From assembly GCA_001001045.1 (NCBI GenBank), contig LCIL01000005.1:21409-85408 (forward strand): a stretch of DNA of 64,000 nt, read 5' to 3'. Positions 26,257 to 50,103 of this stretch are shown in pieces (the stretch's first letter is position 1; each line of letters opens with the position of its first letter). The notes beneath the pieces were generated by a model that was not told the origin of the DNA, searched no databases, and saw only the letters and a list, made by a program, of their open reading frames with translations. The translations under genes were made by a program, and so were the position numbers. This DNA comes from Candidatus Woesebacteria bacterium GW2011_GWA1_44_23 (lineage in GTDB: Bacteria; Patescibacteriota; Microgenomatia; UBA8517).

Positions 26257-27417
26257 ATGCCTGCCAAACTGCTTAGAAGGGTGGCTGAAGAAGGTACGTT
26301 CAGTCATATATATAATAACGGGGTTGAAAATATAGCCATCTTCAAGGACCGGCAAGACTTTGAAGTCTTTCTGGGTTTTTTGAAAGATTACCTATCTCCG
26401 GTCAGTTCCGAAGTTCCCAAAAAAGAATTCACTATTGAAGGCCGCTCTTTCCGGGGCACTCCCCGCCAACCTAAAAATTACCTGGGCAGAGTCGAGCTTA
26501 TCGCCTACCGGCTCACCCCTACCCATTTCCACCTCATCCTGCATCAGAATACCCCGGACTCGCTTGGGAATTTCATCAGGTCCCTCTGCACCAGATACTC
26601 GATATATTTTAATAAAAAATATTCCCATTCCGGAGCTTTATTCAACGGCCCCTACAAATCAGTTTATATCAAGGGTATATCCCAGCTTTTGCACTTCACC
26701 CGGTATCTCCACCGCAGTCCAGATAATGGTGAAGACCCTGTCAAAATATATACATCATACCCAGAGTATATCGGTCAAAGACAATCTTCATGGGTAAAGA
26801 CGAACGCGGTGCTTTCGGTCAAAGGAGTAGACGAGTACAAGGATTTTGTAGAAAAATATCAGCTTAACCAAGAAGAAAGAGATATTCTCGAAGGTGTTCC
26901 TTTTGATGTCAAAGCCCCGCACAAGGAAGAAGTCCTTTATGCACCCGACACCGTTTCCGCTTCTTCCCATGGGACACCTGAACTTTCCCACAAGGCACCG
27001 CCTACTGATTTAAAACCCCGGCCCCGTATTTTCGAGTACGGACTGGCAATGGGGGTTTTTATTGTACTTCTGAGCTTTGGGTTAAATAATGTCCGTGTTT
27101 CTCAGGCAAGATATTCAACAAACTCTCCGGTTCTTTCCGAATCAACAAGCATTATGCCCTCCCCGACCGCTGCCTTACCACCCACCGGTTCTCCCGAACC
27201 AAAAATAATGGTAACAGTTAAAACTGCTGATGCCTCGGTAAGTGCCAATATCCGCAAGGAGCCGAGTTTTCAGGCGGAAATAATCGGTATGGCCAAAAAC
27301 GGTGAAGTTTTTGAATCCGTGTCGATAGGCCCGGAGTGGAATGAGATCAAACTAAATGACGGTTCAATAGGATTTATATTATCAAAACTGGTACTAATAG
27401 ATCAAACTAATATCTAA
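26257..27417 (+). CDS. RAYT/Y1 (IS200-like HUH) transposase domain fused to TM helix and C-terminal SH3 domain
   Basis: HIYNNG...IFKDRQDF...AYRLTPTHFHL (HUH)...YFNKKY...GALF...RYLHRSP (catalytic Tyr position); TM YGLAMGVFIVLLSFGL; SH3b-like ANIRKEPS...IIG...WNEIKLNDGSIGFI. Confidence 0.85.
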   Translation: MPAKLLRRVAEEGTFSHIYNNGVENIAIFKDRQDFEVFLGFLKDYLSPVSSEVPKKEFTIEGRSFRGTPRQPKNYLGRVELIAYRLTPTHFHLILHQNTPDSLGNFIRSLCTRYSIYFNKKYSHSGALFNGPYKSVYIKGISQLLHFTRYLHRSPDNGEDPVKIYTSYPEYIGQRQSSWVKTNAVLSVKGVDEYKDFVEKYQLNQEERDILEGVPFDVKAPHKEEVLYAPDTVSASSHGTPELSHKAPPTDLKPRPRIFEYGLAMGVFIVLLSFGLNNVRVSQARYSTNSPVLSESTSIMPSPTAALPPTGSPEPKIMVTVKTADASVSANIRKEPSFQAEIIGMAKNGEVFESVSIGPEWNEIKLNDGSIGFILSKLVLIDQTNI

Positions 27418-27418
27418 T

Positions 27419-28009
27419 ATGCGCAAGATTTTAACATATATCGGCTTTGTAATCGCATGTGTTTTGGTTTCTCTGCTTTTTGTAACCGCCACTACATATA
27501 TTCAGTTAGCCGTTGCTGTCATCCTCTACCCCATCGTTGCCTATTTTGTAATGAAGATCCTCCCCCGCAAGACTAGAGTGGTCCCGGCAGTCGCGGTACA
27601 GACAGCGGGAACACAGGAGGAGGTTGCCGATTTTGACAGACGTACATTTCTCAAACTTGTGGGGGCAACAGGAATTTTCTTTTTTGTGTCCTCGCTTTTC
27701 GGTAAATGGGCCGGTGCTTTGCCGTTTGGCAAATCCTTGGGGTTGGGAGGCAATAGCATACAGGGGAATTCCGCCACCCCCGGAGCCGGCAACCCAGGAT
27801 CTTTGACTGCAAATGGCTACCAAATTTCCGAGATCGATGACGGCGCAATTACGTTTTACGGATTTACCAATGTTGACGGATCCTGGCTAATCATGAAGGA
27901 AGACACCGAAACAAGTTCTTTCCGCTATGCAAAAGGAAGCTCGGGATTTCCCGCAAGTTGGGATAACCGGCAAAATCTCAAGTACGACTACTACTATAAT
28001 CTCTTCTGA
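27419..28009 (+). CDS. Membrane protein with two TMs, internal twin-arginine signal and small C-terminal domain
   Basis: DFDRRTFLKLVGATGIFFFVSSLFG after two TM helices; C-terminal YQISEIDD...YGF...WLIM...FRY...W..R..L.YDYY. Confidence 0.75.
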   Translation: MRKILTYIGFVIACVLVSLLFVTATTYIQLAVAVILYPIVAYFVMKILPRKTRVVPAVAVQTAGTQEEVADFDRRTFLKLVGATGIFFFVSSLFGKWAGALPFGKSLGLGGNSIQGNSATPGAGNPGSLTANGYQISEIDDGAITFYGFTNVDGSWLIMKEDTETSSFRYAKGSSGFPASWDNRQNLKYDYYYNLF

Positions 28010-29007
28010 GATTCTTTTGTATTAAGCCCTGCCCGGATTTGGCTTTCGCGGGTAACTATGGCTCCGTAAAAAAGAATACTCAGGGAGAACAACAAAAACA
28101 TTGCCGCCTGACGCACATAAAATGGAGTCGTCGTATCAACCATCTGTTGATCCGGTGAAGCCGTGACCAAAAGCCAATTTCTGTTTCCCAAAGGTACGGG
28201 GGAATATGAAATCAGACGGCCGTCCCTAGCTAAACTCCCTTCCTTTGTCGTATTTAGGGCATCCTTGAGACTGTCGCTGACAGTTTGATTACCCAGAAAC
28301 GGTTCTTCGCCGGCTTCAAAAACCTTGACTCCCACTTTATCAGGCGTCTTGCTATCGTACAATAGATCCCCTTGCACACCTATCAGATACACCTCTGTAG
28401 CATCCGATATTTTCATTAACTCCAAATAGTGTTCCGTCAAAGGCTTCAATTTCGCCGAGGTAACTACAGCCCCTACAAAAACGCCGTTTTGAAATACCGG
28501 AGAGACCACCGGAATTATTACCTGGCCCTTGGTGCCGCCCATTCGGCTAACAATCGAGGTGCCAACCAAATATTCCCCTTCATCTGACCAGTTTTTGGCC
28601 CAGTCAAAATAATCACGGTCGGCCAGGGAAACTCCCACATCTTGCGTTCCCAAAACATTGGAGATAAACCTGACAATTCCGCGGCTGTCCGTTAATGCGA
28701 CTCCGGCAACCAGGCCGCTGTTGCTCCATTGAGTTACAAAGGCGTCTAAATCAGATTGGGTATTTTCACCCCAGCTTTCCATACTGCCCAACTTCGCAAG
28801 TACCGCAACCGAATTGCCGAACGTTTCGAAAAAAGCCTCAAGATTGCTGGCTTCAGCTCTCGTCACCATTTGTTGCTGATTTAAAAACTGGTTAGTGACC
28901 GCAGGTTTGACTCTCCAGCTTAGGATTACTAAAAAGGCAGCACCCAAACCCACTATCAAAAGAAGGCCAAATAACCAAATCCTGCCCGACAATGCTTTCC
29001 AAAACAT
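27994..29007 (-). CDS. Stand-alone dCache sensor-domain membrane protein
   Basis: TM, then LADRDYF...SIVSRMGG...IPVVSPVFQNGVFVGAV...YLIGVQGDLLY...WLLV, then a second TM and only a short tail. Confidence 0.75.
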   Translation of the reverse strand: MFWKALSGRIWLFGLLLIVGLGAAFLVILSWRVKPAVTNQFLNQQQMVTRAEASNLEAFFETFGNSVAVLAKLGSMESWGENTQSDLDAFVTQWSNSGLVAGVALTDSRGIVRFISNVLGTQDVGVSLADRDYFDWAKNWSDEGEYLVGTSIVSRMGGTKGQVIIPVVSPVFQNGVFVGAVVTSAKLKPLTEHYLELMKISDATEVYLIGVQGDLLYDSKTPDKVGVKVFEAGEEPFLGNQTVSDSLKDALNTTKEGSLARDGRLISYSPVPLGNRNWLLVTASPDQQMVDTTTPFYVRQAAMFLLFSLSILFYGAIVTRESQIRAGLNTKESQKRL

Positions 29008-29100
29008 CTTGTTTAAAGGTTAGGGCCAAATGTTTACCCTGTCAATACGTCTTGAGCGTCCCACTGTAAAATTGTTGGGGTATGTCATATAATCGGCCGT

Positions 29101-29886
29101 ATGCTCTCGATCATAATTCCGTCTTATAAAGATCCCCTACTGGGTAAAACCATTGAATCTCTTCTGGAAAACGCCGAGGGTGAAATAGAAATAATCCCCG
29201 TTCTTGACGGATACTACCCGGAAACCCCGATAAAAGAGGATAGAAGAATAAGAGTTGTGCACCTTGGCAGAAATCAAGGTATGCGAAGAGCGATAAACGC
29301 GGGAGTTTCGGTAGCCCGGGGGGAATTTCTGATGCGGAACGACGAGCACCAGATGTTCGGCAAGGGATATGACGTAATTCTTACCCGTGATTGTCAGCCT
29401 AACTGGATTATCACACCCAGGCGTTATGCGCTTGATCCTGTAAAGTGGGAAATAATGAAAGAGGTTCCACCGGTAGATTTCATGAAGCTTAAAATCGTCA
29501 ACATGGCACCCGGTGTCAGAAAATTTTCAGGTGTTGAGGCCCCGGGAGATCCGGGAAAACCCATTCAGGAATCAATGGCTATGCAGGGAAGCTGTTGGGT
29601 AATGCCGCATGCATGGTGGGACAAAGTTATCGGAGAGCTCGAAAACGAAGGTTATGGACCACATTATCAGGACAGCCATGAGATGGTGTTTAAAACCTGG
29701 CAGGCAGGGGGAAAATTAATGGTAGATAAAAACACCTGGCACGCCCACAAACACAGGAATTTTCCCCGGACGCATAATAACGGCACTGCCGAAAACCCAT
29801 CCAATAATGAATCCTGCTGGGCTTATTCATTAAGTATTTGGGAAGATTACTATAATAAAGAAATTAAACCAAGGTGGAAGGTTTAA
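29101..29886 (+). CDS. GT-A fold glycosyltransferase (GT2/GT27-like, DxH motif)
   Basis: LSIIIPSY, GMRRAINAG, NDEH, QGSCW, KTWQAGG...WHAH. Confidence 0.85.
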   Translation: MLSIIIPSYKDPLLGKTIESLLENAEGEIEIIPVLDGYYPETPIKEDRRIRVVHLGRNQGMRRAINAGVSVARGEFLMRNDEHQMFGKGYDVILTRDCQPNWIITPRRYALDPVKWEIMKEVPPVDFMKLKIVNMAPGVRKFSGVEAPGDPGKPIQESMAMQGSCWVMPHAWWDKVIGELENEGYGPHYQDSHEMVFKTWQAGGKLMVDKNTWHAHKHRNFPRTHNNGTAENPSNNESCWAYSLSIWEDYYNKEIKPRWKV

Positions 29887-29934
29887 CAAAATTGGAGTTA
29901 TAATTCCATCACGGTGGCTATTATATATGAAAGT

Positions 29935-30132
29935 ATGAAAAAAACTATTGGGGAGCTTATCGACGGACTGTCTATTACTAACAACAAGATCTTCCATCTC
30001 GTCGACAAAGTCCAGCGCAACGAGCATACGCGCGAGGATGCAAAAAAAATCCAAGATTTAAATAAGTTAAGAAGTGAGTATATGAATGCTATAAACGAAT
30101 TCTTTAAGGAAAGGATAGATATAAAAGTGTGA
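29935..30132 (+). CDS. Small helical protein (DUF4254-like)
   Basis: MKKTIGELIDGLSITNNKIFH...LNKLRSEYMNAINE; the T-x-GELID-x-LSI pattern is typical of small proteins in glycosylation clusters. Confidence 0.5.
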   Translation: MKKTIGELIDGLSITNNKIFHLVDKVQRNEHTREDAKKIQDLNKLRSEYMNAINEFFKERIDIKV

Positions 30133-30917
30133 TTAGTATTTTCTCTGGAACAAAATTAACATCCTCCCGGATTAGAGGTATAGAAATGGCTACCTATCTC
30201 CAGGCCAAACACAACCCAAAAGAAGGATATAAAAACGATGTTTGTATTTATGTCAAACCCAAAGAAATGAGCGCAATTAAAGACGGTGACTGGGTTGATT
30301 TTCTAGATTCCAACATCAGCCTCATCGTCCAGTTGAAGGATCGGCCAAAGGTAAAGGTGATTGCCGCTTCGGAAGCCAGCAATGAAGCCCTCAAGCGGGT
30401 TTTGCCAAACGAAATTATCCTTATTCCCTCACATCACATCAATCAGGAAAAACTTAAAAGAACAAGAAGGCAGATCTCTATCGGAGGCTATATCGGAGGA
30501 TTCTCACCCATGTATGAAGAAATTAGAAGAGGGTTAAAGAAAATCGGATTTGATTTTGTAACCTGCTTCGATTTCAAAGGACGAACAGATGCGATGAAAC
30601 TGTACGAAAGCATCGATCTTCTGATTATTGGGTGGTGGACCGGAGACGACAGCCCCCATAAGATACCGACCAAGATTATCAACGCCGCCTCGTTTGGAAT
30701 CCCGTCGATTGCATATCCTTTGCGCGGATATAAAGAAATTGAAGGATTTTATGTTTCTGCTCATAATTTAAGTGAGATAATAACTGAAGCGGAAAAATTT
30801 AAGGATGAGGACTATTACAATAGATGGGCAAAGAAGATTTCCAAGATGGCTGAAAAATACCATATTAGCAAGATTGCCAAACTATATAAAAAACTAAAAC
30901 CAGGTTTTCCTGCTTAA
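30129..30917 (+). CDS. Putative glycosyltransferase (GT-B-like)
   Basis: SSRIRG at the N-terminus; KIPTKIINAASFGIPSIAYP resembles a GT-B nucleotide-binding motif; lies in the GT operon. Confidence 0.55.
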   Translation: MISIFSGTKLTSSRIRGIEMATYLQAKHNPKEGYKNDVCIYVKPKEMSAIKDGDWVDFLDSNISLIVQLKDRPKVKVIAASEASNEALKRVLPNEIILIPSHHINQEKLKRTRRQISIGGYIGGFSPMYEEIRRGLKKIGFDFVTCFDFKGRTDAMKLYESIDLLIIGWWTGDDSPHKIPTKIINAASFGIPSIAYPLRGYKEIEGFYVSAHNLSEIITEAEKFKDEDYYNRWAKKISKMAEKYHISKIAKLYKKLKPGFPA

Positions 30918-31018
30918 ATCTCTTGAAGGAATGGGGTATTATACACATTCGGAGAGAAGAGTAATTCCATACCTTCCCTGCTGAGAATCGGGTAAAATGG
31001 TGCGTATAGAATATCCAT

Positions 31019-31888
31019 ATGGGTTCAAACAAAAAACCAATAAACTTATCAATAATAATTCCCAGTCGAGATTGCCCCTATTTAATGAAAACTATCCAAA
31101 GTATATTAGACAATTGCGTCACCAATATTGAAATTATGGTAAATATTGACGGAAAACCCCCGAGAAAATTTATTAAGGACAAAAAGGTCACATATATCGT
31201 ACAACCTACTCCAATTGGGATGCGGGGCGGAATAAATAATGGGCTTAAAGCAGCTAAGGGCAAATTTATAATGAAGTGCGATGACCACTGCTTATTTGCT
31301 AAAGGATTTGACAAGATTCTGACAAACACCATGCAAGAGAATTGGCTGGTAACCCCCAAACGTTATTCTCTAAACGAAGTGAAATGGGAAAGGGATGAAA
31401 CCCGACCAATTAAAGAATATCTCTACCTATCCTATCCCAAAAAGTCCGTTCACGGACTTGCCATGTTCCCCGTAGATTGGAATAAAAAAAGTGATCGTCT
31501 TATAGATGATACCATGATGATTCAGGGAAGCTGTTGGCTAGCAAACAGAAAATATTTCATGAAACGAGTGGGTTTTCTTGACGATAAGCCTGAAACGTAC
31601 GGGACCTTTGCCCAGGAACCCGTAGAAGTTGCTTTGAAATACTGGCTTGGAGGCGGGGCGGTCAAGGTAAACAAAAATACCTGGTATGCCCACCTAAAAA
31701 AGAGTAAAAGGTACTATAACGAAACAGGCTGGGCAGAAAAGTTTGCAAAGCAGAACAAAGCAGTAGCAAAAGGCAATGAATGGGCAACCGTACACTGGAT
31801 GAATAATGAGGAACCCAACATGATTCACCCTTTTAGCTGGTTTATAAAAAAATTTCAACCGATTCCGGGTTGGGAGAATTACAAATGA
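31019..31888 (+). CDS. GT-A fold glycosyltransferase (GT2/GT27-like, DxH motif)
   Basis: LSIIIPSR, GMRGGINNG, CDDHC, QGSCW, EVALKYWLGGG...WYAH. Confidence 0.85.
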   Translation: MGSNKKPINLSIIIPSRDCPYLMKTIQSILDNCVTNIEIMVNIDGKPPRKFIKDKKVTYIVQPTPIGMRGGINNGLKAAKGKFIMKCDDHCLFAKGFDKILTNTMQENWLVTPKRYSLNEVKWERDETRPIKEYLYLSYPKKSVHGLAMFPVDWNKKSDRLIDDTMMIQGSCWLANRKYFMKRVGFLDDKPETYGTFAQEPVEVALKYWLGGGAVKVNKNTWYAHLKKSKRYYNETGWAEKFAKQNKAVAKGNEWATVHWMNNEEPNMIHPFSWFIKKFQPIPGWENYK

Positions 31889-33372
31889 AAAAAATACTAA
31901 TAACAGGATGCGGAGGGATGTTGGGCGATGCTGTTTATGCTCAATTACGTAAAAGGTATCATGTCAACGCCACCGACATCAACCTCATTGAACCCTGGCT
32001 AAGTTACTTGGACGTCAGAGACCTTAAGAGTGTTAAAAAGGTTTGCGCCGAATTCAAACCGGATTATCTGATTCATCTGGCAGCCTTAACCGACATGGAA
32101 TACTGTGAAACCCACCCAGAAGAGGCGGCGCAAGTTAACGGAACTGCCACAGAAAATCTGGTTAAAATCTCCAAAAAACTTGATATTCCCTTTGTCTACA
32201 TCAGCACTGCAGGTATTTTTACCGATGACAAAAAGGAGCATAGCGAAAAAGACGACCCCAAAGACACTCCTGTAAGTGTATATGGCAAAACCAAATACCA
32301 AGGTGAGGTAGCAGCGAAATCATGGCGTAAGTCGATCATAATCAGGGCCGGTTGGATGATGGGTGGCGGACCCAAAAAGGACAAAAAATTCATCAATAAA
32401 ATTGTCAAACAATTAAGTAGCGGCGCTACAAAGATAAATGTGGTCAACGACAGGGTCGGCACCCCAAGCTATACCTACGATTTGGCAAAAATAATTGTAT
32501 TTCTTCTCGAAAGGAATCTTTACGGTTTATATCACGGCACTTGCGACGGAGGAAACGTAACCCGCCACGATGTCGTCAGTCATATACTTGAATGTTTTAA
32601 CTTGCAAGACAAGGTCAAAGTGGTTGAGGTGGGATCAGATTATTTTAAGGATAGTTTTTTTGCCCCGCGGCCGTTTTCCGAACAGCTAGGCAACAAAAAA
32701 CTTAAATCCACCAACCCAGAATTATTCCGCAGCTGGCGGGACTGTTTAAAGGAATATTTAGGCATGTTTTATTGGAAAGTATCAGGCAACCATACCCCGC
32801 TTTGCGATCTGGCCTATAAATACGGAACCGACAAATGTCCGGAAATAAACCATTCGTATACCCCTTTTTATTACAAATTGCTACAACCCAAAAGAAACTC
32901 TATCAAAAAGATTTTGGAAATAGGAATAGGCTACCCGTCCAACATGAATCATATCGTCCCCCATTACCGGGCGGGTGCAAGTTTATATATGTGGAGGGAG
33001 TTTTTCCCCAACGCCATGATTTACGGAGCTGATATTCTCCCGGAAGCGTTGTTCAAAGACGCACATATAGAAACTTTTTTGTGTAACCAGAAAAAAGACA
33101 CGGACCTAACGAATTTAATCAAAAGCACGGGCTCGGATATCGATATCGTAATTGACGACGGCTCTCATGTAAAAAAGGTCCAGGTGTTTACTTGCCTTAT
33201 CCTATTGCCTCTTCTCAAAAAAGATGTTATTTACATAATAGAAGATGTTAAAGATGCCGTCGAGGTTACCGGAATGATTAAAAAACTCGGCGGGTATGAT
33301 TGCGAGGTTCCGAAGTTGAACCCGGAAAGGCAAGTGAGGCAGGATTGTTTGGTTATTGTTAAAAACAAATGA
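31885..33372 (+). CDS. RmlD-like dTDP-4-dehydrorhamnose reductase fused to class I SAM methyltransferase
   Basis: ILITGCGGMLG, HLAALTDMEYCE, YGKTK, GTPSYTYDLA; then YGTDK...HSYTPFY...LEIGIG...GASLYMWREFFP...DIVIDDGSH. Confidence 0.85.
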   Translation: MKKILITGCGGMLGDAVYAQLRKRYHVNATDINLIEPWLSYLDVRDLKSVKKVCAEFKPDYLIHLAALTDMEYCETHPEEAAQVNGTATENLVKISKKLDIPFVYISTAGIFTDDKKEHSEKDDPKDTPVSVYGKTKYQGEVAAKSWRKSIIIRAGWMMGGGPKKDKKFINKIVKQLSSGATKINVVNDRVGTPSYTYDLAKIIVFLLERNLYGLYHGTCDGGNVTRHDVVSHILECFNLQDKVKVVEVGSDYFKDSFFAPRPFSEQLGNKKLKSTNPELFRSWRDCLKEYLGMFYWKVSGNHTPLCDLAYKYGTDKCPEINHSYTPFYYKLLQPKRNSIKKILEIGIGYPSNMNHIVPHYRAGASLYMWREFFPNAMIYGADILPEALFKDAHIETFLCNQKKDTDLTNLIKSTGSDIDIVIDDGSHVKKVQVFTCLILLPLLKKDVIYIIEDVKDAVEVTGMIKKLGGYDCEVPKLNPERQVRQDCLVIVKNK

Positions 33373-34091
33373 AAAATCTACTGGTTTATGTAAGTAAAGA
33401 TAAAAAGTTTAACCGGGAGTGTGAGACTCTGGCCAAAATCCAAATTGACAACAGTCTTCGTTTAAAGTGGAGAAAAGAAGATATTTTAATGGTCACTAAC
33501 TTTGATTATGAGTATCGGGGAGTTAAAGCTATCGTTGTAGGGGACGAGAATTATTGTGCAGTCAGGCCAAGATCGATTAAAACTTCGATAATCCCCCACT
33601 TAATTGAAAAGGGAATCATAGAAAAAAGGCATATTTACTGGAATCATGATTTTGACGCTTTTCAATTGCATTCTATCAAAGATGAAGAATTGGGACTAGA
33701 CGGTTTTGATGCGGGCTTTACCGACTACGGTTGGAAAAACGACTGGTGTTTGGGAAGTGATTTTATAAAGGAGAGCGCAAAAGACATCTTTGAGTGGCTG
33801 AGGGACGCAATATTTGCTAATTGGGAGGATGAGGAAATACTCGGAAGAATTACGAGAAGGAATACACATAATATCAACTCGAGAATAAAGAAAATGAATA
33901 TAACTTATCAGATTGGAATGAAAAACGTTGATTTTAACTACAAAATAGCTGCAAAACCGCTAAAAGTTCTCCACTTCCATCCGCATAAACCGGGGCTCCT
34001 AGACATCTTCATGTACGGCAAAAACCAAACGGACAAACCCCTTATGCCTAAGGGTTTAATCAATATATTTAATAAACACGGAATAAAGTAA
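33369..34091 (+). CDS. Putative glycosyltransferase/nucleotide-diphospho-sugar transferase
   Basis: DxD motif (WNHDFDAF), late LHFHP motif, position in the GT operon. Confidence 0.55.
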   Translation: MKNLLVYVSKDKKFNRECETLAKIQIDNSLRLKWRKEDILMVTNFDYEYRGVKAIVVGDENYCAVRPRSIKTSIIPHLIEKGIIEKRHIYWNHDFDAFQLHSIKDEELGLDGFDAGFTDYGWKNDWCLGSDFIKESAKDIFEWLRDAIFANWEDEEILGRITRRNTHNINSRIKKMNITYQIGMKNVDFNYKIAAKPLKVLHFHPHKPGLLDIFMYGKNQTDKPLMPKGLINIFNKHGIK

Positions 34092-34260
34092 ATACGTTAT
34101 GAGCAAACCATCAGTGGTGGCAATCTTGCCGAATTTTTAAAAAGTATTAGAAAAAGGTGCGAAAACCTATAGAGATCCATAATATTTGCAATCCAAATAT
34201 TAATTCCCAAACGAATATCCTGGGTATCGGAATGAAGGTCATGGAAATTTTCAGAAATAT

Positions 34261-34944
34261 ATGAATAGAGATTTAACAATAATTTATTACTCATCTAATC
34301 GGGAAGTGCCCGAGTTTGAGACCAGAATTAGGAACAATATTTTAAAAGTTTGTGGCGATTTGCCCATAATAAGCGTTACTCAAAAGCCGATAGACTTTGG
34401 AAAAAATATTGTTGTTGGAGATGTGGGAGCTTCTGGGTTTAACATGTTTAGGCAAGTTCAAATTGCCTGCAAGGAGGCAACAACGAAGTTCGTAGTTTCT
34501 GCTGAAGCGGATTGCTTGTACCCCCCGGACTATTTCACCTTTATTCCCGAGAAGGACAACGTATGTTACCGTAATAAAAATCTATATGTAATGGGTCAAT
34601 ATAGAACCTATTTCTACAAAAAGGAGGAAGGTGCAACGCACGCCCAAGTGGTCGGGCGGGAGTTCTGCTTAAGAACTCTGGATAAACTTTTTGAAGGAGG
34701 TCCGAATTGGTCAATCAAGGAGAGAAATTTCCCCAAAGAGAGGACTCATCAAAAAAAGGAGGATGTTTTTGGCAGTGACGAAATTGAATTCTACGAGACA
34801 AAAAATCCGATTGTACAAATAAAAACAAGCCACAGCATGCGACATTACACTCATTCTGATAGAATACCTCGTGACGAACTTCCCTATTGGGGCAAGGGGG
34901 TAGATTTTAGAAAAAAATATTACGATATCGGATTTAGGCATTAA
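34261..34944 (+). CDS. Putative GT-A-like glycosyltransferase
   Basis: TIIYYS...PIISVTQKPIDFGKNIVV...AEADCLYPPDYF; paralog of 35578..36321. Confidence 0.55.
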   Translation: MNRDLTIIYYSSNREVPEFETRIRNNILKVCGDLPIISVTQKPIDFGKNIVVGDVGASGFNMFRQVQIACKEATTKFVVSAEADCLYPPDYFTFIPEKDNVCYRNKNLYVMGQYRTYFYKKEEGATHAQVVGREFCLRTLDKLFEGGPNWSIKERNFPKERTHQKKEDVFGSDEIEFYETKNPIVQIKTSHSMRHYTHSDRIPRDELPYWGKGVDFRKKYYDIGFRH

Positions 34945-34946
34945 AT

Positions 34947-35576
34947 ATGAAACTAATAGATGCAATTAAAGAGCAGCACGGAAGGCCATTTACAATCCCC
35001 GATTGCTCCCGTGATGAACTCCCCGAATGTTTTAAACAAATGGGCTACAAAACAGGGGCAGAGGTCGGGGTTTATAAGGGGGCGTTTACCGAAAAATTCT
35101 GTAAAGCAGGCTTAAAAATGTATGCCATAGATCCCTGGAAGGCATATCAGGGAGCCGGCCGTACTCAACAGGAACAAGCAAGGCAAGACTTCCTTTACGG
35201 GCATACTCAAAGGACTCTCGCTCCCTATAAAGACTGTACAATAATCAGAAAGACGTCGATGGACGCTCTAAACGACTTCGGCCCGGGAAGCCTGGACTTT
35301 GTCTATTTGGACGGCGATCACCGCTTCCCGTACGTGGCACAAGATATTTATGAATGGAGCGAGAAAGTCAAAAACGGTGGGGTGGTCTCCGGGCATGATT
35401 ATTTCTGCACGGATCCACGGGCAAAAAATGTTTTGTGCCAGGTGGGCGCGATAGTAGATGCTTATGTTAGTGCCTTCGGAATTGAAAATTTTTATGTATT
35501 CGGACGGTCCAAATCACTGGAACTTGAGGCCAAAGATGACAGATATCTAAGCTGGATGTGGATTAAGCCTCTCTGA
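34947..35576 (+). CDS. Class I SAM-dependent methyltransferase (Methyltransf_24-like)
   Basis: GAEVGVYKG, YAIDPW, LDFVYLDGDH, VKNGGVVSGHDY. Confidence 0.85.
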   Translation: MKLIDAIKEQHGRPFTIPDCSRDELPECFKQMGYKTGAEVGVYKGAFTEKFCKAGLKMYAIDPWKAYQGAGRTQQEQARQDFLYGHTQRTLAPYKDCTIIRKTSMDALNDFGPGSLDFVYLDGDHRFPYVAQDIYEWSEKVKNGGVVSGHDYFCTDPRAKNVLCQVGAIVDAYVSAFGIENFYVFGRSKSLELEAKDDRYLSWMWIKPL

Positions 35577-35577
35577 C

Positions 35578-36321
35578 ATGACAAGCACAAAAGGGTGCAT
35601 TTACTACACCGATAACCGCCCGAAGTCTTTTATTTTGGATAAATGCCGTGAGGAAATTTTAAAAGGCTGGAAAGGTCCCCTGGTTTCGGTTTCGCTTCAA
35701 CCGATTGACTTCGGCAAAAATATAGTCTTGGCAGGGGTAGAACGCGGACTCCCGACTATGATCAAACAAATAACAATGGCTTTGGAGGCACTGGATACTG
35801 ACATTGTCTTTTTTCTGGAACATGATGTTTTATATCACCCGTCTCATTTCGATTTCACTCCCCCAAAGGAAGAAATCTATTATTACAATCTCAATAACTG
35901 GCGCTGGGGAATTAAGGAAAATTTTGCTATTACATACGATGGTCTGACCTCCCTTTCTCAACTCGCATGTTACCGAAAAACTGCCCTAAACCATTATAAA
36001 GGAAGACTTAAATACATCATTGACCACGGACTTAACAAGGACCAAAGCCGGGATCCGAGATGGGGACGGGTTATGGGCTACGAGCCCGGAACAAAGCCCA
36101 GGAGGAGGGGTGGTTTTTCCGATGAAAAGTTTGAGATTTGGAAAAGCGATTTTCCAAACATAGATATCCGCCACAGACATACATTTTCCCCGCCGAAATA
36201 CAATTTGGCTGATTTCAAACATCAACCGATAAACTTCCGCCAAGAGAAAATTGAAAATATTCCTTACTGGAATCTGAAAACGTTGCGGGATCAATGGCTG
36301 GATAAATACATAATAAATTAA
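35578..36321 (+). CDS. Putative GT-A-like glycosyltransferase
   Basis: CIYYTDN...VSVSLQPIDFGKNIV...LEHDVLYHPSHF; paralog of 34261..34944. Confidence 0.55.
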   Translation: MTSTKGCIYYTDNRPKSFILDKCREEILKGWKGPLVSVSLQPIDFGKNIVLAGVERGLPTMIKQITMALEALDTDIVFFLEHDVLYHPSHFDFTPPKEEIYYYNLNNWRWGIKENFAITYDGLTSLSQLACYRKTALNHYKGRLKYIIDHGLNKDQSRDPRWGRVMGYEPGTKPRRRGGFSDEKFEIWKSDFPNIDIRHRHTFSPPKYNLADFKHQPINFRQEKIENIPYWNLKTLRDQWLDKYIIN

Positions 36322-36406
36322 ATGAATAAAGGCATGGTTCTCCACACCGCTTTTCCCGGCTTTGATAATGCCTAAGTATGCTGTATTATTGCCTCACGCG
36401 AAACCT

Positions 36407-37474
36407 ATGGCTGATCTTTCAATATTAATACCGGCACGGAATGAAATATTTCTGGCCCGCACGATAGAAGACCTCCTGGCAAACATCGAGGCTGATACCG
36501 AGATCATCGCTGTTTTGGACGGGGTACCCGCCAACCCTCCGATTCCCAAAAATGAAAGAGTAAATGTAATCTCCCTTTCCGAAAGTATCGGACAAAGGGC
36601 GGCAACTAATCTTGCCTGTAAATTAAGCCGCGCCAAATATGTAATGAAGGTAGACGCACACTGCGGATTTGATAAAGGTTTTGACCGAAAAATGCTCGAG
36701 GCATTTAAAATTACCGGAGACAACGTTACGATGGTCCCAATTATGCGTAACCTCTGGGCATATGACTGGAAATGCTACCACTGCGGCTGGAAAAAATACC
36801 AAGGCCCCACTCCGGAAAAGTGTGGGCAGTGCGGTAAGGGAGACAAAATTAGAAGAAAGATGCTTTGGATCGGAAAACATAACCCTCAAAGTACTTCTTA
36901 CTGCTTTGACTCGTCTCCCCATTTCCAGTACTTCGAGGATTGGAAACACCGGCCGCAATACGAAAAAGACAAGAGAGAAACGGGACTGACTGAAACAATG
37001 AGCCTGCAGGGCAGCTGCTGGATGTTGACCCGCGAAAAATACTGGGACCTTAATGTTTGCGAAGAAGCATTTGGGGGTTGGGGTTCTCAGGGAATTGAAG
37101 TTGCGGTTAAAACCTGGCTTTCCGGAGGTAGAGTTATTGTCAATCATAAAACTTGGTATGCACATATGTTTAGAACCCAAGGGGGCGACTTCGGGTTCCC
37201 CTACCCGATTTCAGGAAAGGATCAGGAAAAGGCGAAAAGATATGCAAGGGATTTGTTTTTCAACAATAACTGGAATAAGCAAATTCGCCCTCTTTCCTGG
37301 CTCATCGAAAAATTCTGGCCGGTGAAGGGGTGGGCAGAAGAAGACTTGACCAAGCTTAAAACAAACACTTTCAGATTTAAAGAGAAAGCGGAGCCAAAAC
37401 CTGCCGAGAGTGAGCCCGTTACAAGTGATCCGGTAAGAAACCATCAGACGGGTGTTATTTACTCCGCCACTTAA
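36407..37474 (+). CDS. GT-A fold glycosyltransferase (GT2/GT27-like) with zinc-ribbon insertion
   Basis: DLSILIPARNE, VDAHC, CYHC...CGQC insert, QGSCW, GWGSQGIEVAVKTWLSGG...YAHMFR. Start placed at MADLS. Confidence 0.85.
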   Translation: MADLSILIPARNEIFLARTIEDLLANIEADTEIIAVLDGVPANPPIPKNERVNVISLSESIGQRAATNLACKLSRAKYVMKVDAHCGFDKGFDRKMLEAFKITGDNVTMVPIMRNLWAYDWKCYHCGWKKYQGPTPEKCGQCGKGDKIRRKMLWIGKHNPQSTSYCFDSSPHFQYFEDWKHRPQYEKDKRETGLTETMSLQGSCWMLTREKYWDLNVCEEAFGGWGSQGIEVAVKTWLSGGRVIVNHKTWYAHMFRTQGGDFGFPYPISGKDQEKAKRYARDLFFNNNWNKQIRPLSWLIEKFWPVKGWAEEDLTKLKTNTFRFKEKAEPKPAESEPVTSDPVRNHQTGVIYSAT

Positions 37475-37496
37475 TCAAGAAATTCTTCAGAGTTAG

Positions 37497-37574
37497 AATC
37501 TCATAGTTACAAATTTTAAGAATGTATATAATGGCTTAGCCGTTTTGAAACGGTTATGTTGTTGTATATAAATG
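37497..37574 (+). promoter_or_regulatory. Conserved promoter/leader of SP-repeat gene 1
   Basis: AATCTCATAGTT-N12-AATGTATATAATGGCTTAGCCGTTTTGAAACGGTTATGTTGTTGTATA; nearly identical to 44888..44962; contains TATAAT and a hairpin. Confidence 0.75.
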
Positions 37575-37648
37575 TTTAAGAATAAATACTTCTCAGATGG
37601 CTTCAGAAAGGAGGAGATTAGTATAAAAACTAACAGGAGGAAAATCTA

Positions 37649-40600: not shown

Positions 40601-42538
40601 CCATCGACTAGTCCATCTGTCTCTCCGAGTCAAAGTCCATCGGCTTCGATTTCCCCGTCTGTCTCTCCAAGCGTTTCTCCTTCAATAAGTCCATCGGTAA
40701 GTCCAAGTTTGTCTCCTTCGGTAAGTCCTTCAGCTTCGGTTTCACCAAGTATCTCGCCAAGTTTGTCTCCTTCGGTTTCCCCCAGCGCAAGTATTTCACC
40801 TTCCATTTCTCCAAGCGTTTCTCCTTCGATAACTATATCATCGTCTATCAGTCCAAGTGTGTCACCCAGTGTCAGTCCATCGGTAAGTCCTTCGGTATCA
40901 TCTTCTCAAAGCCCTTCCGCATCAGTATCCCCATCAGTTTCACTGTCCGTAAGCCCAAGTGTATCTGCGAGCGTTTCCCCGTCGGTTTCCCCTTCAGCCG
41001 GATCAAGCGAGTCTCCATCACTTTCACCAAGTATAAGCCCATCAATTAGCCCCTCAGTTTCCCCATCTGTCAGTCCTTCGATTTCCCCTAGTGTTTCGCC
41101 ATCAATCAGTCCTTCTGCTTCGATTTCTCTATCTGTAAGCCCGTCGGTTTCACCATCAGTCAGTCCGTCGATAAGCGCTTCCGTTTCACCAAGCCCCAGT
41201 GTTTCTCCTTCGACTAGTGCGAGCATTTCTCCTTCCATTAGCCCATCAGTCAGTCTGTCGGTGTCACCCTCAATTAGTCCAAGTGTCTCTCCTTCGGTTT
41301 CACCAAGTATCTCGCCAAGTTTGTCTCCTTCGGTTTCCCCCAGCGCAAGTATTTCACCTTCCATTTCTCCAAGCGTTTCTCCTTCGATAATCAGCCCTTC
41401 GGTGTCACCAAGTATAAGCCCATCCATTTCGCCCAGCATCTCACCTTCTCAAAGTCCGTCAGTGTCCGTATCACCTAGCCAATCTCCCTCCGCCTCTCTG
41501 TCACCGTCAGTATCGCCCAGTGCAAGTATTAGCCCTTCAATAAGTCCAAGTGTCTCACCTTCGGTTTCACCTTCTGGATCAATCTCACCCTCAGTAAGCC
41601 CTTCTGTTTCACCTTCTGTCTCTCCTTCAGAATCTATTTCCCCGTCAATAAGCCCATCCCGCAGCCCGTCAGTTTCTCCATCCATCAGCCCGTCAGCAAG
41701 TCCGTCTGTGTCACCAAGCGCAAGTATTTCGCTGTCTATTAGCCTGAGTGCTTCTCCATCTGTTTCCGCCTCGATATCGCCGTCTGTTTCACCTTCTGTA
41801 AGTCTCAGCGTTTCTCCTTCGATAAGCCAATCGGTAAGTCCAAGTTTGTCTCCTTCGGTAAGTCCTTCAGCTTCGGTTTCACCAAGCGCAGGCTTTTCAA
41901 TTTCACCCAGCGTTTCACCGTCTCAAAGCCCTTCGGCTGCGGCTCCCTCAAGTCTCAGTCCATCCGTGTCTCCATCAATTTCTCCTTCAATTGCCATTTC
42001 AACCTCACTATCTCCAAGTGTGTCCCCTTCTATCTCAGCATCCCCATCAATACCGTCTTCAATATCTCTTTCTGTATCACCAAGTGCGAGTCTAAGTCCA
42101 AGCCTGAGCCCATCGGTCGGTCCTAGCGGGAGTCCGCCAGCTTTGCCCAGCACCAGTGCCTCTTTCTCTGTTAGCCCAAGTGCCTCACCGTCACTGTCTG
42201 CTAGTGCTTCTCCTACTGAATCAGCATCACCTTCACCTGCCACGGTGGTATATTCTGCCAGCGCCAGCCCGAGTGTTTCTCCGTCGATCAGCCCCTCTCC
42301 CGCCCGCTATGCATCACCAGAAAAGCCCAGCTTTTATTATGACTCCGCTATTGTTCTCCGGGATGTGGCAAATCGTGATGTTAACTTAAGTGGGCTTCAA
42401 GATACCATACCTTCATGGAACAATGCAGGCCGGCCGAAGAATTTAAAACCCGCCACATTAGGTTTCAATATTGAGACAAAGGATCTCGAATTATATGACG
42501 GATCATTATGGCATAGGCTGCCAATGAAAAAAGTATAG
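37649..42538 (+). CDS. Mucin-like Ser/Pro-repeat protein 1 (1629 aa)
   Basis: Strong RBS (AGGAGG). ~530-aa beta-rich N-terminus with an FN3-like TTYYWRVRAID motif, ~1000 aa of (SPSV/SPSI/SPSA)n, C-terminal PSWNNAGRP...GFNIET...LELYDG..W. No N-terminal signal peptide. Confidence 0.85.
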   Translation: MAVTYVKASTPNTDAAGAFTVTGAAPAVAGNIIILQIFQDGTTDGAVTQTSATNITALDGTANTWTAITEQSVGASDEGRQYLWVGRSSGRSTPTFTGGNTTSEDLYLRMYEFSGVDANATTLSGILENGTAGTVANGTGTSASVSDTSVQTLGDGRLALNFIAVNDDPQAAELAAMTGETGGDWAYPVAAWGSSSGTDGTIALVTASIPSSGTIDGGSDAITSAAWGVIGFALKPEFTPTVALSTPADDATGVSTTPALVFTGTDANSDEVEYEVQVDTVNTFDSSSATMASNSESTYDHDYIDNYNSVPPSWYGQTFTPPFMGPVTSVKFYLKGSDGLTGNMPVRLYATDTSGTPVGEILATSANLDLSSLSTSAYELVEFIFSSPYTVESGVLYALTLENLSSSNLYVGADISSPAYTNGTAISMSPGGYLTVASDLCFYVYSGGSLLDIFSLADNDANWAGTGAPNPFPSGNEITYTVPAGSALAAGTTYYWRVRAIDPLGSNAWGSWSPGAHSGYSEFTTQATGSFSPSISPSVSPSASPSVSPSVSPSISPSVSPSVSPSVSPSLSPSVSPSASVSPSISPSVSPSESPSVSPSVSPSVSPSASISPSTSPSVSPSVSPSASASPSVSPSASPSVSPSVSPSVSPSASVSPSMSPSVSPSVSPSASVSPSISPSVSPSVSPSVSPSVSPSASISPSVSPSVSPSASPSISPSVSPSASISPSVSESVSPSVSPSASVSPSESPSVSPSVSPSFSPSISASISPSISPSVSPSASVSPSVSPSISPSVSPSASPSQSPSASISPSVSLSISPSFSPSASISPSVSPSISPSISPSVSPSESPSASASPSISPSVSPSVSPSASVSPSVSPSASVSPSVSPSASPSVSPSQSPSISPSISPSISPSVSPSASISPSISQSASPSVSPSASISPSLSPSMSPSVSPSGSISPSISASVSPSVSPSASISPSISPSISPSVSPSTSPSVSPSQSPSASISPSVSPSVSPSISPSVSPSLSPSVSPSASVSPSISPSLSPSVSPSASISPSISPSVSPSITISSSISPSVSPSVSPSVSPSVSSSQSPSASVSPSVSLSVSPSVSASVSPSVSPSAGSSESPSLSPSISPSISPSVSPSVSPSISPSVSPSISPSASISLSVSPSVSPSVSPSISASVSPSPSVSPSTSASISPSISPSVSLSVSPSISPSVSPSVSPSISPSLSPSVSPSASISPSISPSVSPSIISPSVSPSISPSISPSISPSQSPSVSVSPSQSPSASLSPSVSPSASISPSISPSVSPSVSPSGSISPSVSPSVSPSVSPSESISPSISPSRSPSVSPSISPSASPSVSPSASISLSISLSASPSVSASISPSVSPSVSLSVSPSISQSVSPSLSPSVSPSASVSPSAGFSISPSVSPSQSPSAAAPSSLSPSVSPSISPSIAISTSLSPSVSPSISASPSIPSSISLSVSPSASLSPSLSPSVGPSGSPPALPSTSASFSVSPSASPSLSASASPTESASPSPATVVYSASASPSVSPSISPSPARYASPEKPSFYYDSAIVLRDVANRDVNLSGLQDTIPSWNNAGRPKNLKPATLGFNIETKDLELYDGSLWHRLPMKKV
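39235..42310 (+). repeat. Degenerate 12-bp-period coding repeat (Ser-Pro-Ser-X)
   Basis: Tetrapeptide periodicity with highly varied synonymous codons. Confidence 0.9.
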
Positions 42539-42817
42539 TATCTTGCAATATTTTTTGACTATAAGCGTATTCTTAAAGCCGTATCTAACTACCCATAGTT
42601 CCTTATAAGCTTCTGGTACTCTCCTACTCCTATAACCATTACCGATCTCCAATATATTAACTAAATCATGATTTTACTCATTTGTTGCATTTTGCGGGCT
42701 TCCATGAATTATAAGGGGAATTTCCTAGATAGCTTCCTGAATAATCGGATAGTTAAGAAGGCTCAGTCTACTAAAAGACTCTTGTAAATCATAATCGCTT
42801 TATACATACTTGTAATC

Positions 42818-42845
42818 TACTTGCTATCTTCAGTGATAGCAAGTA
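42818..42845. promoter_or_regulatory. Perfect 11-bp inverted repeat upstream of second RAYT-like gene
   Basis: TACTTGCTATC-ttcagt-GATAGCAAGTA, ending 10 nt before GTG 42856. Confidence 0.6.
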
Positions 42846-42855
42846 ACTTAAAACT

Positions 42856-43902
42856 GTGACTGCCCATGATTATCAAGCCAAACTAAATGGGGTACTATAT
42901 TCCCATGTTTATCGTGATCTCGCATCTGAAAAAATTTTCATTGATAACGAAGATTATCAGGCATTCGTAAACTTCTTAAATGAATACTTGTCTGACAAAA
43001 ATGTTGATGATAGTAAAAAAATATTTACAATAAGGGGGCATACTTACCAAGGAGTCCCCCGTTTACCTAAAAACTTCTCTAAACAGATTGAGCTTTTAGC
43101 CTATAAGTTAGAGCCAAATCGTTTTGACTTCCTGATAAGAGAAAATGTTCCTGGGACTACTCAAAAGTTCATAAGAGCCGTATCAACAAGGTACGCCCTA
43201 TACTACAACAAGAAACATCATCGAACCGGTTCCCTATTCAAGGATACTTACAAACTGGAAAGAATCAGCGATCCTGCACTACTACCAGGTCTAATTCGTA
43301 GCCTCCACAGTAACTTTAGTAAAAAAGACGGTGTGCCCGATCATGCTTACTCTTCATGCCCTGAATATCTTGGTCAAAGAGCATCGAATTGGATCAATTC
43401 GCAGGCTATACTTTCTAATGAAGGACTGGGTGATCAAAAGCTGTACCCGGAAAAGGGTAAACCGGAAACCGGTGTACGTGTCACCCGTTATCGCCCAAGA
43501 TCCAAAGCCAGGGTACCAGAAATAATATTATCCATTGCGATTCTGGCTATGCTAATAGCTCAAAGTATATTAAGAATCGAAACTTCTTCAACATCAAAAG
43601 CTTCATACTCGCCTCCTTCATACGCTACGGTTCTGGGTGACAAAAGGGAAGCAACGGAAGACGAAAATATAAAAACCGTAGAAGTGAATCAAGGGAAGGT
43701 TTTAATTGATACCGTTGATAATTTGGAAAGTGTAGATATCTATCGGGACGCTTTGTTATCGTCACTTAAAATTGGCGAGGCTAAGGATAATGACATCTTT
43801 GAGCTTGTTTCTGAAAGCCCGGGCTGGTATCAAGTAAAACTTATTAATGGGTCAACTGGCTATGTCTCGTCAGAATATTCGGAAATAATAACGAATTATT
43901 AA
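42856..43902 (+). CDS. Degenerate RAYT/Y1 domain fused to TM and SH3 domain (paralog of 26257..27417)
   Basis: IFIDNEDY...LLAYKLEPNRFDF (HUH lost)...YYNKKHHRTGSLF...IRSLHSN (Tyr lost); TM IILSIAILAMLIA; SH3 VDIYRD...GWYQVKLINGSTGYVS. Confidence 0.8.
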   Translation: MTAHDYQAKLNGVLYSHVYRDLASEKIFIDNEDYQAFVNFLNEYLSDKNVDDSKKIFTIRGHTYQGVPRLPKNFSKQIELLAYKLEPNRFDFLIRENVPGTTQKFIRAVSTRYALYYNKKHHRTGSLFKDTYKLERISDPALLPGLIRSLHSNFSKKDGVPDHAYSSCPEYLGQRASNWINSQAILSNEGLGDQKLYPEKGKPETGVRVTRYRPRSKARVPEIILSIAILAMLIAQSILRIETSSTSKASYSPPSYATVLGDKREATEDENIKTVEVNQGKVLIDTVDNLESVDIYRDALLSSLKIGEAKDNDIFELVSESPGWYQVKLINGSTGYVSSEYSEIITNY

Positions 43903-43903
43903 A

Positions 43904-44572
43904 ATGATCAAAAAAATTATGTTATATGGCAGTTTCTTGGCTGCCAGCTCTGCTGATACGGCCGTTTTCCTTGCGTCTAATGATTATTTTCATCTTGCGC
44001 TTGCCATCCTTCTTTATTTCCCGTTAATTTATATTGCTTTTATAATATTTCCTCGCAGAACCGAATTTGCTGGGAATGTCCCAATCCACCAGGGAAATGG
44101 AATAGAGCCAAACCTGCTAACCACTAACAAGATCGGACAATTTTCCGGCTCCCCTTCCCCTTCGACCGACAGCGTCGAAGTTTCCGACATCAATAAACGG
44201 GTGTTTCTCAAAATGATTGGGGCTACGGGTTTATCCTTCTTCATTTCTTCTCTTATTTCAAAAAGGTTGCCTTCTCATGTTTTCGGGCAATCTGAAGAAC
44301 CAACAACAACCTCTATCATAGATTCCACAGGAGAGGCAGTAGACCCTGCCAAGCACCACCCCACTGACAGCTATAAAATTTCCGAGGTCGACTATGGAAT
44401 TAATACCTATTATGGCTTTATTGATGAAAATGATGGCTGGTTCATTATGGAACAAGATACAAATGCCGGAACCTACCGTTATATAAAAGGCAATGCGAAT
44501 TTTCCTGATAATTGGAGGAGCCGCGAAAGTCTTACATATGACTATTACAATAAAATTTTTGCCAAATCGTGA
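43904..44572 (+). CDS. Membrane protein with internal Tat-like signal (paralog of 27419..28009)
   Basis: DINKRVFLKMIGATGLSFFISSLI; C-terminal YKISEVD...YYGF...WFIM...YRY...W..R..L.YDYY. Confidence 0.75.
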   Translation: MIKKIMLYGSFLAASSADTAVFLASNDYFHLALAILLYFPLIYIAFIIFPRRTEFAGNVPIHQGNGIEPNLLTTNKIGQFSGSPSPSTDSVEVSDINKRVFLKMIGATGLSFFISSLISKRLPSHVFGQSEEPTTTSIIDSTGEAVDPAKHHPTDSYKISEVDYGINTYYGFIDENDGWFIMEQDTNAGTYRYIKGNANFPDNWRSRESLTYDYYNKIFAKS

Positions 44573-49401: not shown

Positions 49402-49486
49402 AGGCTAACAGGAAGATTAACCATTAACCTATCAAATTTTTACTATTGATATGGGGTGGTAAGATTAATATAATAATTTAAACAAT

Positions 49487-49941: not shown

Positions 49942-50103
49942 ATGTTTCAATCGATAGGGACAACAGAGTGGATAATAATTGCCGTCTTGGTACTTTTACT
50001 CTTCGGAGGAAAAAAGATTCCGGAATTTTTCAAAGGCATCGGTGAGGCCGTCAGGGAGTTTAAGAAAGCTTCAAAAGATACCGACGAGAAAAAAGAAGGA
50101 TAA
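49942..50103 (+). CDS. tatA: TatA translocase subunit (53 aa, below ORF-track cutoff)
   Basis: [53 protein letters not shown]; RBS AAGGAGGT at 49921. Confidence 0.92.

Follow-up and report, generated by a model that had tools for sequence, protein, structure and literature searches.

Paralogous membrane proteins with an internal twin-arginine-like signal and a phage-related C-terminal domain in a Microgenomates tat island

The locus

The stretch of DNA analysed here (the window) comprises 64,000 nucleotides of contig LCIL01000005.1 (positions 21,409 to 85,408) from Candidatus Woesebacteria bacterium GW2011_GWA1_44_23, assembly GCA_001001045.1. It carries two paralogous membrane protein genes, hereafter paralogs A and B (ORF A and ORF B, for open reading frame), upstream of two tatA genes and one tatC gene encoding parts of the machinery for twin-arginine translocation (Tat) (Table 1). 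An earlier note on this DNA had described the two as paralogs in which two hydrophobic helices precede, and a third follows, the motifs DRRTFLK (27635) and NKRVFLK (44192), and had proposed them as substrates of the local Tat. Kinship, helices and motif positions are all borne out: the paralogs share 33% identity over their full length (E = 1e-42), and the AlphaFold2 model of paralog A has helices at residues 2–23 and 27–47, before the motif, and at 69–100, after it. The source assembly (21 contigs, 596 kb, with a listed completeness of 94%) encodes exactly two members of the family, whose named homologs belong to Woesebacteria, Daviesbacteria, Roizmanbacteria and other Microgenomates.

Table 1. 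Features of the window around paralogs A and B (TM, transmembrane helix; E. coli numbering for TatC)
Feature	Positions	Strand	Remarks
Upstream partner A	26257..27417	+	Y1_Tnp-like (below cut-off), TM, SH3_3; ends 1 nt before ORF A
Paralog A (ORF A), 196 residues	27419..28009	+	TM1, TM2, cytoplasmic linker, putative internal Tat signal, linker, 65-residue phage-related domain
Motif D-R-R-T-F-L-K of paralog A	27635..27655	+	Followed by weakly hydrophobic helix and K96; no A-x-A
C-domain of paralog A	27800..28006	+	Predicted four-stranded beta-meander plus short helices (predicted local distance difference test, pLDDT, 92); homolog of a phage virion-module protein
GT2 glycosyltransferases, methyltransferase and related genes	29101..37474	+	No N-terminal hydrophobic segments; usual content of the interval from family gene to tat in one of the island types
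Ser/Pro-repeat fibre-like protein, 1629 residues	37649..42538	+	Foot domain at the C terminus; no signal peptide evident; candidate cargo
Upstream partner B	42856..43902	+	Y1_Tnp-like/TM/SH3_3 architecture; ends 1 nt before ORF B
Paralog B (ORF B), 222 residues	43904..44572	+	Architecture as paralog A
Motif N-K-R-V-F-L-K of paralog B	44192..44212	+	Followed by weakly hydrophobic helix and KR
C-domain of paralog B	44357..44569	+	
Second Ser/Pro-repeat fibre-like gene	45051..49365	+	Three ORFs (45051-46496, 46607-48106, 47905-49365); foot domain at end; candidate cargo
Sigma-70-like promoter match (11/12) before mini-gene, tatA, tatA, tatC	49446..49474	+	Consensus match only; 14 sites against 11.7 expected
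Mini-gene	49487..49681	+	64-residue stand-alone foot domain (PHROG 1325, E = 6e-7), immediately 5' of tatA in type I island
tatA family gene 1	49732..49935	+	Pfam
tatA family gene 2	49942..50103	+	Pfam
tatC	50124..50873	+	Pfam; E15, F94, L99, E103 kept; H12 to Y, Y100 to R

The internal signal

In an alignment of 121 rows (the best 120 of 244 matches, plus paralog B), the Asp at position −3, the second Arg, the Phe, the Lys and one Gly of the following helix do not vary in any row, in contrast to the flanking linker. Lys takes the first basic position in 111 rows and Arg in ten. As a correction to the twin-arginine wording of the earlier note, KR and not RR is the usual form among close homologs; paralog A has RR. 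The family motif reads D-x-D-[K/R]-R-x-F-L-K and stands after two (or four) TM helices and before a weak helix, basic residues and the 65-residue domain.

A larger set, extended to distant members by profile search, consisted of 267 proteins, from which five without the motif by the pattern used and 15 fragments were removed, leaving 247 full-length homologs. Hydrophobic segments were counted by a hydropathy scan, and helix hydrophobicity was summed on a hydropathy scale. Two segments precede the motif in 204 proteins, four in 33, an odd number in nine and none in one; the count is thus two or four in 237 of the 247, and most of the other ten seem to be truncated at the N terminus or miscalled. 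At least one Lys or Arg stands behind the last helix in all 247. In 93% of the homologs with two or more preceding segments, the hydrophobicity of this helix falls below that of both helices before it. An even number of TM helices, a weak last helix and basic residues behind it are the features by which Tooke et al. characterize proteins inserted jointly by the general secretory (Sec) and Tat pathways, as given in the accessible text (PMC5449189). Judged by sequence, paralogs A and B carry the hallmarks of such dual Sec/Tat (class IV) substrates.

Among the full-length homologs, 70 have RR (paralog A included) and 177 have KR (including paralog B). Distant members display the succession RRxFLK, helix, K, A-x-A and FFG. 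A signal-peptidase-like A-x-A before FF is found in 38 of the 70 RR members against 7 of the 177 KR members, and is absent from both window paralogs; an ORF resembling signal peptidase I by motif lies on contig C9 of the assembly. The notion that KR reflects decay after loss of Tat was rejected, since members with KR only occur in intact tat islands (G001, G077, G273, G664, G700, G658 and G624; G and L numbers are our handles for genomes and loci).

Among the 692 ORFs of the assembly, strict [RK]RxFLK occurs only in the two paralogs, and looser patterns give 15–17 matches, mostly very hydrophobic Sec-like segments. The strict count was discarded as stand-alone evidence because residue-shuffled ORFs reach at least two matches in 18 of 200 shuffles; taken alone it is weak, and the conservation of the alignment columns is the strong point. 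The Pfam and TIGR models of Tat signals matched paralog A below cut-off only and did not match paralog B. As a separate observation, nothing else in the assembly comes as close to a classical Tat signal as the N terminus of a secreted protein at 9005-10534 (S-R-R-V-L-F, a very hydrophobic helix, RK and A-x-A), which is more likely a Sec signal.

Linkage to tatA and tatC

In a sample of 301 genomes of the class, 26 have both the gene family and tatC, nine the family only, six tatC only and 260 neither, so that tatC is found in 26 of 35 family-bearing and 6 of 266 family-less genomes (Fisher p = 2e-24, a value overstated owing to kinship). The corresponding figures for the window's taxonomic family are 37, 11, 5 and 72. 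In a second taxonomic family (96 genomes) 13 genomes have both, eight the gene family only and none tatC only; all 13 tatC genomes there carry the gene. In a phylum sample, also of 301 genomes, a single genome outside the class (G348) has the family, and its tatC lies 4.7 kb downstream.

Where family gene and tatC share a contig, the two are on one strand in 40 of 40 pairs, at distances of 1.1–38.8 kb, and tatC is the downstream gene in 38; the count excludes a duplicated pair in G678. In G664, a fibre gene, a RAYT-SH3 gene, a KR-type family gene, tatA, tatA and tatC follow one another. In G193 (L170-L171), tatC has an internal stop and the RR-type family gene is intact.

The window TatC, mapped on E. 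coli TatC, keeps E15, F94, L99 and E103; H12 is replaced by Tyr and Y100 by Arg. According to the accessible part of a 2026 structural study, a water-mediated contact joins the first Arg of a Tat signal to E15, and a salt bridge joins the second to E103 (PMC13323110), which fits a family with a variable first and a fixed second position. A tree of 33 TatC rows separates an island clade of 26 from a second clade of seven. E15, F94 and E103 are present in 26 of 26 island-clade proteins, 21 of which have Arg or Lys at position 100; E103 is present in none of the seven second-clade proteins, for which the alignment is less sure. Four genomes with second-clade TatC only have no family domain. Retention of the arginine pocket only in the family-linked clade favours a real pair of signal and receptor over mere linkage within an island.

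The second-clade loci (L182-L188, in G071, G164, G131, G073, G229 C1 and G280) have, immediately after tatC, a signal-less ORF whose N-terminal motif is common to them; pectate-lyase-like beta-helices are present in two. Upstream of tatC there is often a divergent secreted protein, in two cases with fn3/carboxypeptidase-regulatory domains. This looks like export without a twin-arginine signal. A solitary tatC in G662 (L222) lies between a LysM/M23 gene and rho, with no adjoining tatA.

The C-terminal domain and its phage relatives

The last 65 residues of the protein are predicted to fold into a beta-meander with short helices (pLDDT 92.5). As the earlier note had it, this C-domain has no cofactor motif: its alignment contains no conserved Cys, His or metal ligands. 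Neither paralog nor the domain belongs to a Pfam, NCBIfam or PHROGs family, a Foldseek search of the PDB gave nothing at E ≤ 0.001, and the Atlas feature search returned no usable match. A wide VIA-align search reached at best Z = 5.3, with generic beta-meanders and propeller blades that are uninformative.

By structure, the Atlas and BFVD matches are small tailed-phage proteins with TM-scores of 0.84–0.86 (BFVD E = 4e-5). A tblastn search of GenBank phages found nothing with the domain of paralog A as query and one weak useful match (E = 0.03) with that of a relative. Stand-alone forms of the domain are 80–125 residues long, and a profile of these retrieved 87 viral loci, of which 80 were kept, many of them near-duplicates. 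The Caudoviricetes relatives are small proteins of the morphogenesis module (BFVD A0A6J7WTL6, the C terminus of UOF80561.1 in MW202692 and IMG/VR loci L078-L157). They have the same fold as the C-domain (TM-score 0.86), a mean identity to it of about 31% and the shared elements Y-x-G, W-x-I and W-x-x-R-x-x-L-x-Y. By sequence and predicted structure, the C-domain is thus homologous to a phage virion-module protein. The architectures differ: the viral domain either forms a protein by itself or lies, behind a long spacer, at the end of one that may reach 647 residues, and none of the 80 viral ORFs with the domain has the Tat motif.

PHROG scans of 64 proteins chosen from 18 viral loci show the domain surrounded by genes for portal, major head, protease and tail proteins. 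The portal gene is immediately upstream in at least four loci, and the next gene encodes at least 300 residues in 36 of the 57 loci with enough flank. The viral versions often lie before large fibre-like genes, with glycosyltransferase-like genes as neighbours in some phages, and L101 has a fusion of the domain with the N-terminal domain of a tail fibre (phrog_8469). Judging by gene position, the phage version may be part of the particle, where it would dock a fibre. In relatives, the interval from family gene to tat encodes proteins that are themselves homologous to the phage neighbours, with overall E-values of 1e-11 to 1e-50: island proteins match the gene that follows the domain by 36 bp in L086 (6e-13 to 1e-44), the gene behind the domain in L120 (1e-18), a gene 3 kb behind it in L149 (1e-50) and the N terminus of the L101 protein (1e-23). 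In an unrooted tree of 76 columns, 31 bacterial domains fall on one side of a branch (SH-aLRT 93) and 47 viral domains on the other. The greater diversity of the viral domains (mean identity 38% against 49%) and the variety of their architectures suggest a passage from phages to the candidate phyla radiation (CPR). In five viral loci (L081, L087, L099, L109 and L149), glycosyltransferase- or epimerase-like genes lie within the morphogenesis module, and some are homologous to island genes.

Gene order and island types

Two types of island can be recognized, and mixed ones occur. In type I, found in the window, a RAYT- or helix-turn-helix (HTH)-TM-SH3 gene is followed by the family gene (mostly KR and without A-x-A), a glycosylation cluster, a Ser/Pro fibre gene, the mini-gene, tatA, tatA and tatC. 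Type II comprises one or more TM-SH3 genes, the family gene (RR with A-x-A, often with four TM helices), a small membrane gene, genes for large beta-rich proteins, tatA in several copies, tatC and a PrsW-like gene.

The spacing of 1 nt between a RAYT-SH3 stop and each paralog, pointed out in the earlier note, stands, with the adjustment that the RAYT part of the upstream gene is dispensable. In all of 47 distinct cases, an iterated local profile finds a gene that ends in SH3b 5' of the family gene; RAYT is present in 23 of them, and its absence from the other 24 led us to reject RAYT as a part of the mechanism. In four loci an HTH-like start takes its place (L063:9677-10552, L068:18403-19257, L071:11517-12467 and L209:4537-5529), which indicates that the cytoplasmic module of the SH3 gene is exchangeable.

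Hydropathy and inspection by eye showed no clear signal peptide in the proteins of the fibre, mini and glycosylation genes. The hydropathy peak in a 15-residue window is 1.8 for the first fibre and 1.7 for the mini protein, as compared with 2.4–3.3 in membrane or secreted controls. C-domains are acidic (net charge −4), and mini and foot domains are basic (+1 to +11); these opposite charges are a weak hint of pairing. The frameshifts in the repeat of the second Ser/Pro fibre gene may be assembly errors.

Discussion

The sequence features of the signal (parity of the TM helices, weak last helix, basic c-region), the linkage and co-occurrence with tatC and the intact arginine pocket of TatC support the earlier proposal that the paralogs are substrates of the local Tat. 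We consider it quite likely that the family is a Tat substrate, with the island TatA and TatC exporting its folded phage-related domain. The phage context of the C-domain and the signal-less genes between family gene and tat further suggest fibre docking, and a role of the family in fibre docking or export is slightly favoured. The full reading, in which the paralogs are dual Sec/Tat proteins and dedicated cargo of the neighbouring TatA/TatC, with the C-domain as a docking piece for fibres and possibly a piggy-back carrier, receives a probability of roughly 0.5. Genuine piggy-back carriage of fibres before export, which is argued by analogy, remains a tentative and somewhat doubtful component.

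Under this reading, Sec would insert the N-terminal helical hairpin or hairpins, leaving [K/R]RxFLK in the cytoplasm. By the precedent of the Rieske proteins, Sec would let the chain go at the weak last helix and its basic residues. The C-domain would then fold in the cytoplasm and TatC would take up the motif, the second Arg going to E103 and the Phe to F94, whereupon TatA would move the domain out. Paralogs A and B, which have no A-x-A, would stay anchored, while many RR relatives may be cut off by signal peptidase. We propose that the domain binds a fibre or the mini protein before or after export, beside the wall-binding SH3b partner. It is tempting to go further and imagine that Microgenomates took over a fibre module from phages and coupled it to Tat: a docking protein fused to a Sec hairpin and an internal, often cleavable signal would pull folded, glycosylated fibres through a dedicated translocase, often with multiple TatA, and SH3b domains would retain them at the wall. 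We regard this extension as rather unlikely; if it were true, surface appendages would be secreted by a system based on Tat, whose substrates would gain a sixth class, internal and cleaved.

A number of observations weigh against the proposed role. KR dominates among the full-length homologs, paralog B included, and these do not have both arginines of the class IV consensus. Single Lys substitutions in the twin-arginine motif slow export and are poorly tolerated, according to the accessible text of one report (PMC7317946); in another, likewise consulted in part, such substitutions slowed the export of SufI and TorA rather than blocking it, and TtrB naturally has KR (PMC1182353). Since a natural KR signal exists, KR lowers the chance of function without excluding it. 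The fibres, at 1600–3100 residues, exceed the listed range of natural Tat cargo, which runs from below 10 to about 140 kDa, although hydrophilic unstructured linkers are tolerated. What is encoded between family gene and tat varies with the island type, with no single conserved partner emerging, and the window's own Ser/Pro fibres match phages in their C-terminal foot domain only. A shared island alone would yield co-occurrence without any substrate relation, and kin are not independent. At least one further genome, G280, has a family gene with second-clade TatC only, and second-clade tatC genes adjoin signal-less fibre-like genes with no family gene near, so that a linkage of Tat to fibres does not require the family protein.

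The remaining difficulty is the absence of tat from part of the family genomes, where the earlier note had expected the motif only in genomes with tatC. In the union of our three overlapping samples, tatC was found in 68 of 92 family genomes; it was not found in 24, nearly all fragmented, and in the second taxonomic family 8 of 21 gene-bearing genomes are without it. In the nine tat-less genomes of the class, tatA was not found either, and the motif is intact. The expectation thus fails as a strict rule; nevertheless, the gap follows assembly quality, for tatC was found in 5 of 5 single-contig genomes, 19 of 20 with at most 10 contigs, 20 of 28 with 11–30 and 29 of 44 with more than 30. This climb with contiguity indicates that missing tat tracks fragmentation. 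Moreover, the tat-less contigs (in the nine class genomes and most of six further ones) end in glycosylation or fibre genes before the usual position of tat. True loss of tat may have occurred in some lineages.

If KRxFLK were a positive-inside or structural motif, or a relic, the paralogs would be ordinary Sec-inserted three-helix proteins that track tatC through the shared island. This would agree with the prevalence of KR in close homologs, with Tat-signal hidden Markov model scores below cut-off, with the intact motif in genomes where tat was not found and with the weak correlation of family and TatC distances (Mantel rho 0.29, 24 genomes). A topology signal, however, needs neither an invariant Phe nor an invariant Lys, and distant members have a textbook RRxFLK-h-K-AxA signal. 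The arginine pocket kept only in the family-linked TatC clade, the dependence of tat absence on fragmentation and the lack of any other strict motif in the assembly that could account for TatC also speak against a Sec-only protein, which we judge highly improbable.

Two alternatives retain a contact with TatC. The paralogs may be dual substrates that export only their own fast-folding or oligomeric domain, the fibres leaving the cell otherwise and docking later or never. The signal features hold with or without a partner, and the small domain has a confidently predicted fold and many invariant aromatics, which may mark self-association; the fibre sizes above known Tat cargo would cease to be a problem. 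Such export would nevertheless leave the signal-less fibre and mini genes immediately 5' of tatA in intact islands without a route and the presence of up to seven tatA copies per locus unexplained, and we hold it to be unlikely. Alternatively, the protein might be a resident subunit of the translocase, its tethered signal binding TatC and triggering TatA assembly while the C-domain stays inside as a receptor for signal-less fibres. The motif is indeed stricter than ordinary Tat signals, its invariant acidic −3 residue could pair with the basic residue that replaces Y100 in 21 of the 26 island TatC proteins, the family gene of G664 lies inside the tat operon, and the second TatC clade, which has lost E103, still neighbours fibre-like genes. 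Yet A-x-A in 38 of 70 RR members suggests that the c-region gets to the outer side, the site of action of signal peptidase, and the constant partner gene has an SH3b domain of extracellular type. A resident subunit seems decidedly improbable to us.

The route proposed for paralogs A and B has precedents. Class IV is exemplified, in the accessible texts, by the actinobacterial Rieske protein Sco2149, the Sco3746 family with molybdenum cofactor, the MLMS-1 polyferredoxin and polytopic YkuE (Tooke et al. 2017, PMC5449189; classes in PMC13673990). Our family shares with these two or four TM helices before an internal motif, the weak helix, the basic residues and a folded C-terminal domain. It differs in that no sequence homology was found, KR is common and the island has its own tatA and tatC. 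The passenger, in contrast to those described by Tooke et al., is a phage-related 65-residue domain without cofactor ligands; as far as the accessible text of the classification goes, a cofactor domain is a feature for which those four families were chosen and not part of the class definition (PMC13673990). Class IV is defined there as uncleaved, whereas about half of our RR members have A-x-A. A signal-bearing subunit that escorts signal-less partners, as we propose, is known from the Tat hitchhikers HybO/HybC and PaoABC, which in the portion consulted are globular redox enzymes with N-terminal signals (PMC4273604); here the carrier would be tethered to the membrane and the cargo would be long fibres, their binding being a proposal. 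Salmonella TtrB has, like the KR members, a natural Lys for the first Arg, but its signal is N-terminal and on an iron–sulfur protein, according to the text available to us (PMC1182353).

TatA and TatC have been reported in Microgenomatia, with the cargo not named in the part of that report consulted (PMC9166423). The 2026 review distinguishes five classes of Tat substrate, with the internal ones uncleaved, and its accessible text makes no mention of CPR (PMC13673990). Our literature search, which covered openly available papers and not subscription papers or the online TATFind/TMHMM lists of Tooke et al. 2017, met no paper on the family or on Tat cargo in CPR. The export route itself is already on record as class IV; that search did not meet the family, nor its cofactor-free phage-related passenger, its frequent internal A-x-A or its dedicated island. 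Comparative evidence makes the family a concrete candidate cargo for the Microgenomatia Tat, and likely the one for which this otherwise unexplained system was kept; it may help to bring virus-like surface fibres out of the cell. If this is true, it would be a dual Sec/Tat family with a cofactor-free passenger, unlike the four of Tooke et al. in the text consulted (PMC5449189), and its A-x-A members would fit none of the five classes as these appear in the accessible text of the review (PMC13673990). Tat would be tied to phage-derived surface fibres in bacteria thought to be host-attached. The combination of KR and an acidic −3 residue with a TatC in which H12 and Y100 are replaced may further offer a natural receptor–signal pair for studies of recognition.

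Additional observations

Type II islands L160, L166, L169, L171 and L162 have 4–7 tatA copies around one tatC, and one of the copies is usually 5' of a gene for a secreted protein of 800–1000 residues (with SH3b in L169). A PrsW-like membrane protein of 115–132 residues follows tatC-tatA in this type (L169:7414-7797 and homologs, 10 genomes), and a conserved membrane protein of 150–160 residues with no Pfam match follows the family gene (L168:7948-8415 and homologs, nine genomes). In the window, a convergent gene at 27994-29007 (−) overlaps the 3' end of paralog A and encodes a TM-dCache_1-TM protein without a signalling domain; dCache_1 is again a neighbour of the family gene in G001, G204, G280, G300, G586, G677 and G703.

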